Shown piece after piece: positions 116-6,473 of a DNA stretch of 6,473 nucleotides. This DNA comes from a virus (Duplodnaviria > Heunggongvirae > Uroviricota > Caudoviricetes): the IMG/VR virus record IMGVR_UViG_3300029841_000297; one strand, 5' to 3'. The notes under the pieces were generated by a model. That model had not been told where the DNA came from, made no database searches, and saw nothing but the letters and a program-made list of their open reading frames with translations. Positions within the stretch are counted from its first letter, which is position 1. Each line of letters begins with the position of its first letter. The translations under genes were made by a program, and so were the position numbers.

Positions 116-454
116 ATGGAATTTAAAGATTTACCTCCTTCAATCCAGGAGATTGCAGCACACACACTTCGTCATCGTCTGAACGAACTTGAATTGGAAT
201 CGGTAACAAAAAAAGACACTGATAATATGGCTCGCAATGTGCGCGATGCGTTTACTGGGCTGTTTTCAGATACAGCTTTAAATATCCATGGCACAGAGGA
301 TACAGCAAAACAATTTGCAGAAAAAGAAGTGGAAGATCCCAGTTCAAAGAGCCAGAAACAGCCAAACAACCATGAAATTAACGAACTGCTTCTGGCAACA
401 GGCTTCATAAATATTAACGAATATGAACGCCGTAAAAAAATGTTATCTGATTAA
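116..454 (+). CDS. Hypothetical phage protein, 112 aa, charged and hydrophilic; function unknown
   Basis: ATG at 116 preceded by GAGG at 106..109 (6-nt spacing); uninterrupted 112-codon frame; no motif I can recognise. Confidence 0.6.
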   Translation: MEFKDLPPSIQEIAAHTLRHRLNELELESVTKKDTDNMARNVRDAFTGLFSDTALNIHGTEDTAKQFAEKEVEDPSSKSQKQPNNHEINELLLATGFININEYERRKKMLSD

Positions 455-637
455 TCCATCAAGATATCTTTTTAGCATCAGCGTTTCTACGTTATTAAAA
501 CCATCAGATTTTAACATAGCTTCGATTCGCTGATTTAAATTGCCAACTAACTGTTGATACTGAGTAGATGGAAGCATGTGTACCAGCTCCTTGAGAACAC
601 AATAACATGCACCAAGTTTTAACTCCTGCTCTGACAT
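443..637 (-). CDS. Hypothetical small protein, 64 aa (MSEQELKLGACYCVLKELVHMLPSTQYQQLVGNLNQRIEAMLKSDGFNNVETLMLKRYLDGLIR), likely helical; opposite orientation to the rest of the operon
   Basis: ATG at 637..635 preceded on the minus strand by GGAGG at 7-nt spacing. The longer 443..709 frame in the ORF track begins at a GTG with no ribosome-binding site. Its 3' end overlaps the 116..454 gene by 12 bp. Confidence 0.55.
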   Translation of the reverse strand: MSEQELKLGACYCVLKELVHMLPSTQYQQLVGNLNQRIEAMLKSDGFNNVETLMLKRYLDGLIR

Positions 638-1212
638 TTTATCCTCCATTGAGGTTACTGGTTGAGAATGGAGACCTCTCGTGACAGCGTGTGGTCGTGC
701 GCCGGACACGGATAAGAATCCGGCACTGACAGTTTACTGAAAGGATATTTCCCTGAAAAGTCAGACCATAACGCGAAAGCGTACGGCGAGGTAGCTGGTT
801 CATAGATAGCCTGTCGTTAAATTTTCGTCGACCGTGCGCTTCCGGTTGTGGCAATCCGCGAAATGGCGCGGCGGTAAGTATGGCGGGGTTATTCCTTCCC
901 CCGTTGAGGACACCGGGTTGTCAGGTTGACCATACGCTTAAGTGACAACCCCGCTGCAACGCCCTCTGTTATCAATTTTCTGGTGACGTTTGGCGGTATC
1001 AGTTTTACTCCGTGACTGCTCTGCCGCCCTTTTTAAAGTGAATTTTGTGATGCGGTGAATGCGGCTGAGCGCACGCGGAACAGTTAAAGCAGTAAGGCGG
1101 TCTTTTACTGGCGTAACGAGCATCAACTAACCCGGCGTTAATTGTTAACTGGTTAACGTCACCTGGAGGCACCAGGCACTGCATCACAAAATTCATTGTT
1201 GAGGACGCGATA
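638..1212. promoter_or_regulatory. ~575-bp ORF-poor region with multiple perfect hairpins: candidate structured ncRNA and/or promoter-operator region for the flanking divergent genes
   Basis: No + strand ORF longer than ~23 codons. Perfect inverted repeats at 701..724 (6 bp), 771..782 (ACGC-GAAA-GCGT, GNRA-type tetraloop), 915..951 (9 bp stem, 19-nt loop) and 1162..1176; imperfect palindrome with two GTTAAC hexamers at 1136..1158. GC is about 52% against about 40% in neighbouring phage genes. Confidence 0.3.
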
Positions 1213-1401
1213 ATGGAAACGTTATTACCAAACGTTAATACGTCTGAAGGTTGTTTTGAAATTGGTGTCACTATCAGTAACCCTGTATTTACTGAAGATG
1301 CCATTAACAAGAGAAAACACGAACGGGAGTTATTAAATAAAATATGCATTCTTTCAATGCTGGCCCGTTTACGTCCGATACAAAAAGGATGTGCACAATG
1401 A
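1213..1401 (+). CDS. Hypothetical small protein, 62 aa
   Basis: ATG at 1213 preceded by GAGGA at 1201..1205 (7-nt spacing); its stop overlaps the next start in an ATGA junction (1398..1401). Confidence 0.45.
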   Translation: METLLPNVNTSEGCFEIGVTISNPVFTEDAINKRKHERELLNKICILSMLARLRPIQKGCAQ

Positions 1402-1589
1402 ATACAGCATTTGCACTTGTTCTGACAGTTTTTCTTGTTTCCGGAGAGCCAGTTGATATTGCAGTCAGTGTTCACAGGACAATGCAGGAGTGTGTGACTG
1501 CAGCAACCGAACAGAAAATTCCCGGTAACTGTTACCCGGTCGATAAAGTTATTCACCAGGATAATAACGAAATCCCGGCAGGTCTTTAA
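1398..1589 (+). CDS. Small protein, 63 aa, with an N-terminal hydrophobic segment (MNTAFALVLTVFLVSG: signal peptide or membrane anchor) and two Cys residues; probably exported or membrane-associated
   Basis: ATG at 1398 with AAAGGA at 1384..1389 (8-nt spacing). The ORF-track frame 1344..1589 shares this frame but its upstream start has no ribosome-binding site. Translationally coupled to the preceding ORF. Confidence 0.55.
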   Translation: MNTAFALVLTVFLVSGEPVDIAVSVHRTMQECVTAATEQKIPGNCYPVDKVIHQDNNEIPAGL

Positions 1590-1681
1590 AACAGTTCCGT
1601 AATAAATATCCGGTTTCATTCTTATATGCCAGCAATGGCAGGGATTTGTTCACCCTTAAATCTGTAATGAGGTAAAACAAA

Positions 1682-4153
1682 ATGAGTAAAGTCTTTATTT
1701 GCGCCGCCATTCCGGACGAACAGGCAATAAAGGAAGAAGGTGCCGTCGCTGTAGCCACTGCCATTGAAGCCGGTGATGAACGTCGCGCCCGCGCAAAATT
1801 TCACTGGCAATTCCTGGAACATTATCCGGCTGCTCAGGACTGCGCTTATAAATTTCTTGTCTGCGAGGATAAACCCGGTATACCCCGCCCTGCCCTCGAT
1901 TCCTGGGATGCTGAATATATGCAGGAAAACCGCTGGGATGAGGCGTCTGCTTCCTTTGTCCCGGTTGAGACTGAATCAGATCCGATGAACGTCACTTTTG
2001 ACAAGCTGGCCCCTGAAGTACAGAACGCTGTCATGGTTAAGTTCGACACATGTGAAAACATCACCGTTGATATGGTGATTAGCGCGCAGGAACTGTTGCA
2101 GGAAGACATGGCAACATTCGACGGACATATCGTTGAAGCGTTGATGAAAATGCCAGAAGTTAACGCCATGTATCCGGAGCTTAAGCTGCATGCCATCGGG
2201 TGGGTTAAGCATAAATGTAAGCCTGGTGCCAAATGGCCCGAAATTCAGGCAGAGATGCGCATCTGGAAAAAACGTCGCGAAGGTGAACGCAAGGAAGCCG
2301 GAAAATACACGTCTGTTGTTGATCTCGCCCGCGCCAGAGCCAATCAACAGCACACTGAAAATTCAACAGGAAAAATCAACCCGGTCATTGCTGCCATTCA
2401 TCGCGAATACAAGCAGACATGGAAAACACTGGATGACGAACTGGCCTACGCTCTCTGGCCTGGTGATGTGGATGCCGGAAACATTGACGGCAGCATCCAT
2501 CGCTGGGCAAAAAATGAAGTTATCGACAACGACCGCGAAGACTGGAAGCGTATCTCGGCATCAATGCGCAAACAGCCTGATGCCCTTCGCTACGACCGCC
2601 AGACTATTTTTGGCCTTGTCCGTGAACGTCCGATCGACATTCACAAAGACCCTGTGGCACTGAACAAATACATTACTGAATACCTGACTACAAAGGGCGT
2701 GTTTGAAGATGAAGGAACAAATCAGAGCGCAACTGATACTCTCTCGTCGCCAGTACCAGAAACTGATGCAGTGGAAACGGCAATTCCGGACAACGAAAAA
2801 ACCGAATGCAAAGTGGAAGTCGAACCATCTGTAGAACGTGAGGGGCCGTTCTACTTCCTCTTCACCGACAAGGATGGCGAAAAATACGGTCGCGCAAACA
2901 AACTTTCTGGTCTGGATAAGGCGCTGTCTGCTGGGGCTACTGAAATCACGAAAGAAGAATATTTCGCCCGCAAAAACGGTACATACTCAGGTTCACAACA
3001 AAATACTGGTGCATCTGACACGACCGCACAACCAGGGTCAGTAAAAGTTACCGCTGACGAAGTAAACAAAATTATGCAGGCAGCCAATATCAGCCAGCCT
3101 GACGCCGATGAACTGCTTGCAGTATCACGTGGTGAATTTGTTGAAGGGATTAGCGACCCGAATGATCCGAAATGGGTTAAGGGGAACCAGACCCGCGATT
3201 CTGTGAACCAGAACCAGCAAGAAACGGAACAGAACGACCAGAAAGCGGAACAAAACAGCCCAAATGCGTTACAAAACGAGCCAGAAACGAAACAGCCTGA
3301 ATCAGTGGCGCAACAGGAAGTGGAAAAAGTCTGCACCGCCTGCGGTCAGACCGGCGGCGGCAACTGCCCTGATTGTGGCGCGGTAATGGGCGACGCAACA
3401 TACCAGGAAACATTCGATGAAGAGTATCAGCCTGAAGTTCAGGAAGATGATCCGGAGGAAATGGAAGGCGCTGAACATCCACACAAGGAGAACACTGGCG
3501 GCAATCAGCATCACGATAGCGATAATGAAACTGGCGAGACGGCAGATCACTCAATTAAGGTGAACGGTCATCAAGAAATCACATCCACCAGCAGGACGTG
3601 TGACCATCTAATGATCGACCTTGAAACCATGGGAAAAAATCCTGATGCCCCGATCATCTCAATAGGTGCAATATTTTTCGATCCGCAAACCGGAGATATG
3701 GGACCGGAATTTAGTAAGACTATCGATCTGGAAACTGCTGGCGGGGTCATTGATCGGGACACCATTAAATGGTGGCTTAAGCAATCACGCGAAGCGCAAT
3801 CTGCCATTATGACCGATGAAATCCCGTTAGATGATGCACTGTTACAATTGCGGGAATTTATCGACGAAAACTCCGGTGAATTTTTTGTTCAGGTTTGGGG
3901 AAATGGAGCCAACTTCGACAACACGATTTTGCGCCGTTCATACGAACGGCAGGGGATCCCCTGCCCGTGGCGTTACTACAACGATCGCGATGTACGCACA
4001 ATCGTTGAGCTGGGGAAAGCCATAGACTTCGATGCCAGAACGGCTATTCCATTCGAAGGTGAGCGCCATAATGCACTTGATGACGCTCGTTACCAGGCAA
4101 AATACGTTTCAGCTATCTGGCAAAAACTGATCCCGAGTCAGGCTGATTTTTAA
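1682..4153 (+). CDS. Large phage exonuclease, 823 aa: RecE (exodeoxyribonuclease VIII)-like N-terminal and middle region, acidic/Q-rich linkers, a CxxC-x10-CxxC zinc-ribbon-like motif, and a C-terminal DEDDh (DnaQ/RNase T-like) 3'-5' exonuclease domain
   Basis: GAGG at 1669..1672 about 9 nt before ATG 1682; 823-codon frame. C-terminal domain (about nt 3599..4150) carries exo motif I MIDLETMG (D at 3617..3619, E at 3623..3625), motif II WGNGANFDN and motif III HNALDDARY (H at 4067..4069), the DEDDh pattern. The segment LLAVSRGEFVEGISDPNDPKWVKGNQTRD matches what I recall of Rac RecE (from memory, unverified). Cys cluster CTACGQTGGGNCPDCG at 3332..3376. Confidence 0.8.
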   Translation: MSKVFICAAIPDEQAIKEEGAVAVATAIEAGDERRARAKFHWQFLEHYPAAQDCAYKFLVCEDKPGIPRPALDSWDAEYMQENRWDEASASFVPVETESDPMNVTFDKLAPEVQNAVMVKFDTCENITVDMVISAQELLQEDMATFDGHIVEALMKMPEVNAMYPELKLHAIGWVKHKCKPGAKWPEIQAEMRIWKKRREGERKEAGKYTSVVDLARARANQQHTENSTGKINPVIAAIHREYKQTWKTLDDELAYALWPGDVDAGNIDGSIHRWAKNEVIDNDREDWKRISASMRKQPDALRYDRQTIFGLVRERPIDIHKDPVALNKYITEYLTTKGVFEDEGTNQSATDTLSSPVPETDAVETAIPDNEKTECKVEVEPSVEREGPFYFLFTDKDGEKYGRANKLSGLDKALSAGATEITKEEYFARKNGTYSGSQQNTGASDTTAQPGSVKVTADEVNKIMQAANISQPDADELLAVSRGEFVEGISDPNDPKWVKGNQTRDSVNQNQQETEQNDQKAEQNSPNALQNEPETKQPESVAQQEVEKVCTACGQTGGGNCPDCGAVMGDATYQETFDEEYQPEVQEDDPEEMEGAEHPHKENTGGNQHHDSDNETGETADHSIKVNGHQEITSTSRTCDHLMIDLETMGKNPDAPIISIGAIFFDPQTGDMGPEFSKTIDLETAGGVIDRDTIKWWLKQSREAQSAIMTDEIPLDDALLQLREFIDENSGEFFVQVWGNGANFDNTILRRSYERQGIPCPWRYYNDRDVRTIVELGKAIDFDARTAIPFEGERHNALDDARYQAKYVSAIWQKLIPSQADF
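3599..4150 (+). other. DEDDh 3'-5' exonuclease domain within the 823-aa protein
   Basis: Motifs D-x-E, D and H-x4-D in the canonical order and spacing of DnaQ-like/RNase T-like exonucleases. Confidence 0.7.
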
Positions 4154-4211: not shown

Positions 4212-4415
4212 ATGAGCAGCTTATTTTTAACCGAAGATGAATTGCTAATATTAACGGGCTGCAAATATGCAAGCCACCAGCGAAAATGGTTAATGGAAAA
4301 CGGGCTTCCGTTCTATACCAATCGTAGTGGCAAACCGATTGTCAGCCGGGATCTATTTACCTGCAATAAAACTTTACCACCACGCGAGGTAGAGCCGAAT
4401 TTTGGTGCGATCTGA
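4212..4415 (+). CDS. xis: Excisionase-like small DNA-binding protein, 67 aa (DUF4224-type, found immediately upstream of prophage integrases)
   Basis: Position directly upstream of int, with its stop overlapping the int start (ATGA-type junction at 4413..4417). The pattern LTxxELxxLTGxKxxxxQxxWLxxNGLPF is typical of this family (recalled). Confidence 0.7.
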   Translation: MSSLFLTEDELLILTGCKYASHQRKWLMENGLPFYTNRSGKPIVSRDLFTCNKTLPPREVEPNFGAI

Positions 4416-5440
4416 TGGGAAGACGAAGGAAAAATCCTGAACACGAAAAATTACCTCCAAATGTATACCCAAATAAATATAGTTATGTATGGAAACCAAC
4501 ATCCAGAGAATCTGTCACACTAACCGCCATCAAGGATGGTTTAGCTGCTTTATGGAAAAAGTATGAGGAAACTGTAAATAATCGCGATCGTGCAATGACA
4601 TTCGGTCGCTTGTGGGAAAAATTCCTCGCCAGCGCCTGTTACAGTGACCTTAGTCCAAGAACACAAAAAGATTATCTGCAACATCAAAAAAAGTTGCTTG
4701 CCGTATTCGGTAAGGTACCAGCGGATTCCATAAAACCAGAACACATCCGTCGATACATGGACAAAAGAGGGGAGCAGAGTAAAACGCAAGCCAACCATGA
4801 AAAAAGCAGTATGTCCCGTGTTTACAGTTGGGGGTATGAGCGAGGGTACGTCAAGGCTAACCCATGTGCAGGTGTAAGTAAATTCAAGGCCAAAAACCGC
4901 GAACGATATGTAACCGACAAAGAATACCAGGCAGTATTAAGCGTTGCACCTCTTCCTGTTTTTATCGCAATGGAAATTGCCTATCTGTGTGCAGCGAGGG
5001 TTTCCGATGTGTTATCGCTGAAATGGGAACAGATTGGAAACGACGGGATATTCATCCAGCAAGGGAAAACCGGAAAAAAACAGATAAAAGCATGGAGTCC
5101 ACGATTACAGGCAGCGATCGAAAAAGCAAAACAGTTACCAAAATCTGCCTATGTGATCAGCAATCAATACGGCAACCGATATATGTACAAAGGCTTTAAC
5201 GAAATGTGGGTAGAAGCAAGAAATCGTGCTGGAAAAATTTCAGGTATTTTAACCGACTTCACCTTTCATGATCTGAAGGCGAAAGGAATTTCAGACTATG
5301 AAGGAAGCAGCCGGGATAAGCAACTTTTCTCTGGTCACAAAACCGAAGGGCAAGTGCTAATCTATGACAGGAAGGTTAAAGTTTCACCAACACTTGATGT
5401 CCCGTTACCTGAAAATATTCCAAGAAAATATTCCAAGTAA
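4415..5440 (+). CDS. int: Lambda-family tyrosine integrase, 341 aa, with N-terminal arm-binding domain
   Basis: N-terminus MGRRRKNPEHEKLPPNVY resembles lambda Int MGRRRSHERRDLPPNLY. Catalytic-region matches: AARVSDVLSLKWEQI (Arg I), QQGKTG (Lys), FHDLK (box II), GHKTEGQVLIYDR (His and Tyr nucleophile) versus lambda RVGDLCEMKWSDI / SKTG / FHELR / GHKSDTMASQYRDD. Lies next to a tRNA gene. Confidence 0.93.
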   Translation: MGRRRKNPEHEKLPPNVYPNKYSYVWKPTSRESVTLTAIKDGLAALWKKYEETVNNRDRAMTFGRLWEKFLASACYSDLSPRTQKDYLQHQKKLLAVFGKVPADSIKPEHIRRYMDKRGEQSKTQANHEKSSMSRVYSWGYERGYVKANPCAGVSKFKAKNRERYVTDKEYQAVLSVAPLPVFIAMEIAYLCAARVSDVLSLKWEQIGNDGIFIQQGKTGKKQIKAWSPRLQAAIEKAKQLPKSAYVISNQYGNRYMYKGFNEMWVEARNRAGKISGILTDFTFHDLKAKGISDYEGSSRDKQLFSGHKTEGQVLIYDRKVKVSPTLDVPLPENIPRKYSK

Positions 5441-5492: not shown

Positions 5493-5540
5493 TGGCGGAG
5501 AGAGGGGGATTTGAACCCCCGGTGGAGTTGCCCCCACTCC
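5493..5540. other. Probable att core / prophage-host junction overlapping the 3' portion of tRNA-Ser (attL in lambda convention); extent approximate
   Basis: The integrase is transcribed toward the tRNA and ends 52 bp from its 3' end. Tyrosine-integrase prophages at tRNA genes carry a core identical to the tRNA 3' segment. The second copy needed to delimit it is outside the window. Confidence 0.45.
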
Positions 5541-5582
5541 GGTTTTCGAGACCGGTCCGTTCAGCCGCTCCGGCATCTCTCC
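5493..5582 (-). tRNA. serU: tRNA-Ser (anticodon CGA), 90 nt, class II tRNA with long variable arm
   Basis: Reverse complement reads GGAGAGATGCCGGAGCGGCTGAACGGACCGGTCTCGAAAACCGGAGTGGGGGCAACTCCACCGGGGGTTCAAATCCCCCTCTCTCCGCCA: 7-bp acceptor stem, anticodon loop CU-CGA-AA, T-loop GGTTCAAAT, 3' GCCA. Adjacent to mtfA as in E. coli (recalled gene order). Confidence 0.95.
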
Positions 5583-5675: not shown

Positions 5676-6473
5676 ATGATTAAGTGGCCCTGGAAAGTAC
5701 AAGAATCAGCACATCAAACTGCCCTTCCCTGGCAGGAAGCACTATCGATCCCCCTTTTAACGTGTCTGACAGAACAGGAACAAAGCAAATTGGTCGCTCT
5801 TGCCGAACGTTTTTTACAGCAAAAACGGCTTGTTCCTTTACAGGGCTTTGAGCTGAATTCATTAAGAAGCTGCCGGATAGCACTTCTATTTTGCCTGCCC
5901 GTTCTGGAGTTAGGACTGGAATGGCTGGATGGTTTTCATGAAGTCTTAATTTATCCTGCGCCATTTGTGGTCGATGATGAATGGGAAGACGATATCGGTC
6001 TGGTGCATAACCAACGTATTGTTCAGTCAGGTCAGAGCTGGCAGCAAGGGCCTATCGTTTTGAACTGGTTGGATATACAAGATTCTTTTGATGCTTCTGG
6101 TTTTAACCTGATTATTCATGAAGTCGCTCATAAGCTGGACACCCGTAACGGCGATCGCGCCAGCGGAGTTCCCTTTATTTCGTTGCGTGAGGTTGCTGGC
6201 TGGGAACACGATCTTCATGCTGCAATGAACAACATTCAGGAAGAAATCGAATTAGTTGGTGAGAATGCGGCGAGCATTGATGCTTATGCTGCCAGTGATC
6301 CTGCTGAATGTTTTGCCGTACTTTCTGAATATTTCTTTAGCGCCCCAGAACTTTTTGCTCCTCGTTTCCCTTCATTGTGGCAACGTTTCTGTCAATTTTA
6401 TCAACAAGATCCTTTGCAGAGACTGCATCACGCTAATGATACAGACTCGTTTTCGGCGACGAATGTTCATTAA
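5676..6473 (+). CDS. mtfA: MtfA, Mlc titration factor A / zinc-dependent peptidase, 265 aa
   Basis: Protein [23 protein letters not shown]... with HEVAH metallopeptidase motif; length and sequence match E. coli MtfA as I recall it. The ORF-track frame 5637..6473 begins at an upstream in-frame GTG; ATG 5676 is preferred. Confidence 0.9.

Follow-up and report, generated by a model that had tools for sequence, protein, structure and literature searches.

Two small open reading frames (ORFs) on the plus strand of the viral DNA analysed in this study (6,473 nucleotides, hereafter the window) overlap by a single stop/start motif and lie directly upstream of an exonuclease gene. This arrangement raises the question of what the two proteins are and what their close joining means. 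The pair was identified as dicB-ydfD, which forms the distal portion of the dicBF operon in a Qin-like prophage, and the overall explanation given below, which combines mechanisms derived from Escherichia coli K-12 with an inferred coupling, very probably holds. Gene identity and anatomy come from the window itself, the mechanisms would apply by way of published work on the K-12 proteins, to which DicB and YdfD are 90% and 94% identical, and the purpose of the coupling is one that we infer.

Identity of the two proteins

The first ORF (1213..1401, plus strand, ATG start) encodes a 62-aa cell-division inhibitor. It matched the Pfam family PF05358 (DicB) over positions 1-62 of 62 (E 4.3e-38; 129.2 bits, cut-off 27) and the NCBIfam family NF049927, 'cell division inhibition protein DicB' (130.6 bits, cut-off 100). 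The protein was identical to the RefSeq-annotated DicB of strain ML35 (WP_000449191.1) and shared 90% identity with K-12 DicB, from which it is separated by six substitutions, three of them clustered at residues 55-57. No match to a Kil family was obtained in a Pfam scan at E values up to 0.1, which returned DicB and one sub-threshold chance match (PF23511, E 0.073, 13.6 bits against a cut-off of 31.3). The gene is located 3' of DicF in a dicBF-type operon, and annotated lambdoid prophage loci are syntenic with it. ORF1 is DicB, of which MinC binding and ZipA-dependent inhibition of division would be expected, as known for the 90% identical K-12 protein.

The second ORF (1398..1589, plus strand, ATG at 1398) encodes a 63-aa protein of the DUF1482 family, the lysis protein of Qin-type prophages. 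It matched Pfam PF07358 (DUF1482) over model positions 1-57 of 57 (E 3.7e-25; 88 bits, cut-off 25) and phrog_1092 (E 2e-37). Identity was 94% to the K-12 'lysis protein YdfD' (WP_001083297.1), which amounts to four substitutions, and 100% to WP_001090200.1 of strain ML35. The conserved N-terminal F-A-L-V-L-T-V motif of DUF1482 is present in the window protein, as are C32 and C45, which were invariant in an alignment of 37 family members, and A6, L7 and G16, which were at least 90% conserved. The family is narrow: among 1.84 billion representative proteins, a profile search gave no more than 72 hits at E <= 1e-3. A full-text literature search for 'DUF1482' returned no papers, and a sequence search of the PDB with DicB and YdfD returned no relatives, its sole hit (E 0.11) being due to chance. 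ORF2 is YdfD, and lysis and IspG binding would be expected to carry over from the 94% identical K-12 protein.

No evidence against the identity of either gene was found. The original prediction, which had been made from the letters of the DNA, held that neither protein was recognisable. In fact, each belongs to a curated family and corresponds to a named gene that has been studied experimentally, and the profile searches essentially place both among known phage proteins.

Layout and start sites of the cassette

The two genes share an ATGA motif at 1398..1401 (plus strand), in which the dicB stop codon TGA (1399-1401) overlaps the ydfD start codon ATG (1398-1400). Each gene has its own Shine-Dalgarno sequence: GAGGA at 1201..1205 (plus strand), 7 nt before the ATG of dicB, and AAGGA at 1385..1389 (plus strand), which precedes the ATG of ydfD by 8 nt and is buried within the 3' end of dicB. 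The AAGGA motif was kept in related loci whose junction strings were compared. The ATGA junction was retained in 86 of 88 fetched related loci, most of them near-identical, and it was also kept in the PPompW phages, though their DicB is 70% and their DUF1482 protein 50% identical. A two-gene cassette with an ATGA overlap at these coordinates, placed upstream of an exonuclease gene that starts at 1682, had been proposed from the letters of the DNA, and the sequence, the ORF list and the conserved junction bear it out.

A longer version of ORF2 starting at ATG 1344 (81 aa) was present in a mechanically produced ORF list and was rejected. The Pfam match begins at residue 22 of this version, the first residue of distant DUF1482 homologues corresponds to the methionine of 1398, and no Shine-Dalgarno sequence was found at 1344; the start of ydfD is therefore placed at 1398.

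A 204-aa ORF on the minus strand (1005..1619) stays open over the entire cassette, and it could be asked whether it is the true gene or whether the two plus-strand frames are open by chance. Such a reading has practically no likelihood left. The antisense frame is broken in relatives, where the longest open stretch is 129 aa in K-12, 103 aa in PPompW and 93 aa in E. albertii, and it is thus regarded as spurious. In contrast, ORF1 and ORF2 both match curated families over their full length (E 4e-38 and 4e-25), which is far beyond chance. The cassette is confirmed to be real, non-random and correctly delimited by the original prediction.

The cassette lies in the early-left arm of a Qin-like prophage

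Upstream of the cassette, a DicF small RNA followed by a T-run was identified at 978..1029 (plus strand) by Rfam RF00039 (76.7 bits, gathering threshold 48; E 3.7e-16; model positions 1-52 of 52). DicF is an antisense regulator of the ftsZ and manX mRNAs, and its distance from dicB, 183 nt, is exactly that in the K-12 dicBF operon. This RNA, which defines the operon, was absent from the original prediction. Between the ydfC-type genes and DicF lie two convergent small ORFs, at 116..454 (plus strand; 112 aa, phrog_2151) and 443..709 (minus strand; 88 aa, phrog_4987). Both are 'hypothetical' in ML35, and neither product matched a Pfam or NCBIfam family.

Downstream, the exonuclease gene (1682..4153, plus strand; 823 aa; Pfam and PHROG) encodes a DEDDh-type (Rv2179c-like) C-terminal domain (PF16473, residues 642-813, E 1.4e-67) and matches phrog_2082 over its full length. 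The protein is of mosaic build. Its residues 246-625 show a likeness to the central part of RecE (exodeoxyribonuclease VIII), though at 273.7 bits, far below the cut-off of 1269 bits, and the catalytic domain at 642-813 is of the DEDDh Rv2179c-like 3'-5' exoribonuclease type, not the RecE nuclease domain. The K-12 counterpart 3' of ydfD is a pseudogene cut by IS2 (ydfE in the literature), whereas the window copy is intact. It is followed by genes for an excisionase (DUF4224; 4212..4415, plus strand) and a tyrosine integrase (4415..5440, plus strand), both recognised by Pfam and PHROG, which together form the end of the prophage. Beyond the integrase gene lie a tRNA-Ser(CGA) gene (5493..5582, minus strand; ARAGORN and Rfam tRNA), the likely attachment site, and the host gene mtfA (5676..6473, plus strand), named from the annotation under its match in E. 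coli genomes. The 3' end of the tRNA faces the integrase gene, and the prophage stops there, beside mtfA.

The order ydfA-ydfB-ydfC, then dicB, ydfD, exonuclease, xis and int, was the same in annotated genomes. Because DicF lies upstream, and the exonuclease, xis, int and tRNA-Ser downstream, the window is assigned to a Qin-like lambdoid prophage, of which it covers the early-left (pL-like) arm and the attachment end. In ML35, the closest match for the dicB-ydfD segment, the prophage is located at ompW and carries a different integrase; the combination of early-left arm and integration module is therefore mosaic.

Distribution of the pair and of DUF1482 genes

A megablast search with positions 900-1700 of the window (801 bases) matched 4664 of 5426 complete E. 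coli genomes (approximately 86%), at a median of two places per genome. Matches spanning the cassette were annotated in the order dicB ('cell division inhibition protein DicB'), ydfD ('lysis protein YdfD' or 'DUF1482 family protein') and exonuclease. The pair is thus already known and common; the finding is genuine, but with most E. coli genomes carrying these genes there is nothing unusual about it. The fresh points are confined to the fold and topology of DUF1482 and its coupling to varied upstream small genes. The value of the analysis lies in the correct annotation, namely a Qin-like early-left arm with three host-toxic regulators, DicF, DicB and YdfD.

Co-occurrence across phage records agreed with the proposed pairing: a DUF1482 gene adjoined dicB in all 20 of the phage records that carry DicB. 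Eight further records, from Klebsiella, Salmonella and Citrobacter, contained a DUF1482 gene without dicB. In the loci inspected from these three genera (2254..2692 in locus L090; 2301..2698 in L091 and L092), the DUF1482 gene still overlaps an upstream small ORF by 4 nt or 1 nt. The upstream partner is a 37-aa protein (phrog_22279) in Klebsiella and a 66-aa protein (phrog_3722) in Salmonella and Citrobacter, and comparison revealed no similarity to DicB among the Klebsiella and Salmonella partners. Tight coupling seems to be general to the DUF1482 gene and not special to its pairing with DicB. Since DUF1482 pairs with unrelated ORFs beyond Escherichia, a rationale for the coupling that is specific to DicB cannot be general.

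A contig scan with narrow back-translated patterns yielded six loci. The 22.9-kb contig JAGZPX010000007.1, from a metagenome-assembled genome labelled Veillonella parvula, carries a dicB-ydfD locus with 87% identity to the window; mis-binning of an Escherichia prophage contig is the most likely explanation.

Functions of the orthologues and a proposed working of the operon

Both genes have been studied in K-12; the sequence of dicB dates from 1988, and the characterisation of ydfD from 2016 and 2022. Transcription of the dicBF operon starts upstream of ydfA, at a promoter under DicA repression, and a ydfABC-dicFB-ydfD transcript of 1,608 nt has been detected (PMC10448788). DicB binds MinC directly and ZipA brings the complex to the septal ring, with depolymerisation of FtsZ rings and filamentation as the outcome (PMC6832061). 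DicB-MinC also inhibits ManYZ, whereby the DNA entry of lambda and other ManYZ-dependent phages is blocked, as is the uptake of mannose and glucosamine (PMC6832061). The suggestion that the cassette encodes a Kil-like or exclusion factor therefore fits DicB, on account of both its FtsZ-ring inhibition and its ManYZ-dependent phage exclusion, but it had been pinned on the second protein rather than the first.

Ectopic expression of YdfD lysed nearly all cells, and co-expressed DicB or SulA stopped this lysis, according to the account of Masuda 2016 given in PMC8835842; lysis is therefore division-dependent. Binding of YdfD to IspG, a cytoplasmic protein of the MEP isoprenoid pathway that YdfD is reported to inhibit, was described by Lu et al. 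on the basis of pull-down, SEC of MBP-YdfD with IspG, ITC (Kd 18 µM) and CFP/YFP FRET, and the lysis was rescued by ispG overexpression or by HMBPP (PMC8835842). YdfD activity was lost or weakened on removal of even one terminal residue, and the overlap of dicB with ydfD was already remarked upon in the same work (PMC8835842). The YdfD-IspG link comes from this one paper, which used tagged, overexpressed proteins and found a weak affinity.

Taken over to the window, these functions suggest the following course. In the prophage state, a DicA-type repressor would keep the operon off, as in K-12. Upon derepression, a polycistronic transcript would give rise to the DicF small RNA, then DicB, then YdfD. 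DicB with MinC would be carried via ZipA to the septal ring, where FtsZ rings would be dismantled and filaments would form, and ManYZ-dependent entry of phage DNA would be barred. YdfD on its own would bring about rapid lysis, dependent on ongoing division, through inhibition of IspG. Because of the ATGA overlap and the Shine-Dalgarno sequence inside the 3' end of dicB, ribosomes ending dicB may reinitiate on ydfD, which would tie the translation of YdfD to that of DicB. Synthesis of YdfD would then always coincide with the DicB division block that restrains its lytic effect, and this may be the purpose of the coupling.

The same 4-nt overlap, and the abolition of YdfD lysis by co-expressed DicB (PMC8835842, citing Masuda 2016), could also be read as signs of a toxin-antitoxin module, with YdfD as the toxin and DicB as the antitoxin that counteracts it, and the discussion of Balasubramanian 2016 likens the dicBF operon to toxin-antitoxin systems. 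It is very improbable that the pair works in this way. The unrelated division inhibitor SulA gives the same degree of protection, according to the same account of Masuda 2016 in PMC8835842, so that the protection is indirect, by division arrest rather than by toxin binding. DicB is itself toxic, as it causes filamentation; searches of Pfam, NCBIfam and PADLOC linked neither protein to a toxin-antitoxin or defence family; and the operon is controlled by a phage repressor rather than by antitoxin autoregulation. What is left of the analogy, which had been raised in the original prediction, is the blocking of YdfD lysis by DicB; the protection by SulA and the toxicity of DicB make it a loose one.

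Topology and fold of YdfD

A hydrophobic segment and two cysteines had been taken to indicate that the second protein is exported or anchored in the membrane. In such a case, YdfD would carry a Sec signal peptide or signal anchor, form a periplasmic disulfide and act on the envelope from outside the cytoplasm. Several features are in line with this. Residues 3-15 form a 13-residue apolar run, the Kyte-Doolittle maximum over 19 residues is 1.87, C32 and C45 occur in every aligned family member, and a second pair of cysteines in DUF1482 is either present or absent as a whole, as would be expected of disulfide partners. Membrane association of YdfD was reportedly proposed by Masuda in 2016. When YdfD was compared with Sec signals, the h-region of 13 residues was within the fitting range (7-15) and V-S-G before E17 was a possible cleavage site; a basic n-region and a lipobox were both lacking.

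The wider family speaks against export. Run length, charge and cysteine counts were derived from an alignment of 37 DUF1482 members. No Lys or Arg precedes the apolar run in 33 of these 37, the run itself measures merely 8-15 residues, and the 19-residue hydropathy is below 1.6, the usual threshold for a membrane helix, in most members from outside Escherichia. The four-cysteine members carry one cysteine inside the apolar run, which cleavage would remove. The second cysteine pair, equivalent to F12 and P18, was present in ten and absent in 27 of the 37 members and never occurred singly (Fisher p 3e-9, phylogeny not corrected for), and four-cysteine members resemble each other no more than they resemble two-cysteine members. 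These data suggest that the second pair and the invariant C32/C45 are paired cysteines, either disulfides or packing partners.

Prediction with AlphaFold2 from a diverse alignment (pLDDT 80.6, pTM 0.58) gave YdfD a β-β-α-β fold, with strands at 4-12, 18-26 and 44-48 and a helix at 29-38. In this model, residues 4-12 of the apolar run make up the first strand of a β-hairpin, whose turn is flanked by the optional cysteine pair. A run with a shallow alignment of close homologues was discarded as unreliable (pLDDT 58.8). No structure in the PDB matched the YdfD model at E <= 0.001 with Foldseek. Against BFVD, the matches were weak (best E 0.009) and led to small phage proteins that are themselves uncharacterised and silent on function; a DUF1482 protein was among them.

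Published experiments with K-12 YdfD point away from export as well. N-terminal GST, MBP and His fusions bind the cytoplasmic IspG, YdfD-CFP is fluorescent and shows FRET with IspG-YFP in vivo, and removal of one N-terminal residue weakens the activity (PMC8835842). The hydrophobic segment is predicted to be strand 1 of the hairpin, and this modelled position fits the soluble N-terminal fusions, the fluorescent CFP fusion, the cytoplasmic partner and the sensitivity of the N-terminus. Export or membrane anchoring is thus judged unlikely. Of the original observation, the apolar run at 3-15 and C32/C45 stand; the reading as a signal peptide is weak, given the missing basic n-region, the β-strand in the AlphaFold2 model and the cytoplasmic location of IspG. 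The family-wide data against a signal peptide also bear on the weight to be given to the published IspG mechanism.

A more far-reaching proposal may be offered tentatively, as one that stands somewhat below even chances. YdfD could be a compact cytoplasmic β-β-α-β mini-domain with its hydrophobic N-terminus as the central strand, held together by the invariant cysteine pair and the optional, co-varying one. The DUF1482 gene would also be a conserved second cistron whose translation is in every case coupled to that of a small gene in front of it; this partner is DicB in Escherichia and an unrelated protein in the phages of Klebsiella, Salmonella and Citrobacter, and the two might form a general two-gene module of lambdoid early operons. 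Taken together, the interpretation in the original prediction is partly supported.

Comparison with known systems

The closest counterpart is the K-12 dicBF locus, with which the window shares the order DicF, dicB, ydfD and exonuclease, the lengths of 62 and 63 aa and the ATGA overlap. The cassette belongs to the dicB-ydfD pair of Qin-type prophages and is not merely similar to it. Nevertheless, the K-12 locus differs in that IS2 disrupts its exonuclease and int genes (ydfE and intQ in the literature), whereas exonuclease, xis and int are intact in the window. The K-12 locus is also flanked by the host genes rspA and rspB, whereas the prophage in the window is located at tRNA-Ser(CGA)/mtfA.

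Lambda Kil, like DicB, is a small protein of the pL (early-left) operon that blocks Z-ring formation, and its position 5' of the recombination and exonuclease genes is analogous. The action of Kil is also dependent on ZipA. However, the two have no sequence relationship, and DicB works via MinC, whereas Kil does not.

Compared with type II toxin-antitoxin pairs, the cassette likewise consists of two small overlapping genes, and the lethal effect of one disappears when the other is co-expressed. The likeness ends there: the protection by DicB is indirect, the 'antitoxin' is toxic, neither protein has homology to toxin-antitoxin families, and there is no evidence of autoregulation.

YdfD finally resembles the single-gene lysis proteins E of phiX174, A2 of Qβ and LysM of phage M, which are small as well, cause lysis by blocking the supply of cell-wall precursors and need growing and dividing cells (PMC8835842). 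In contrast to these, whose targets are MurA, MraY or MurJ, the reported target of YdfD is IspG in the MEP pathway. Its gene belongs to an early operon, and the prophage, being that of a tailed lambdoid phage, would carry a holin-endolysin cassette as well; YdfD is therefore probably not the mechanism by which this phage is released.
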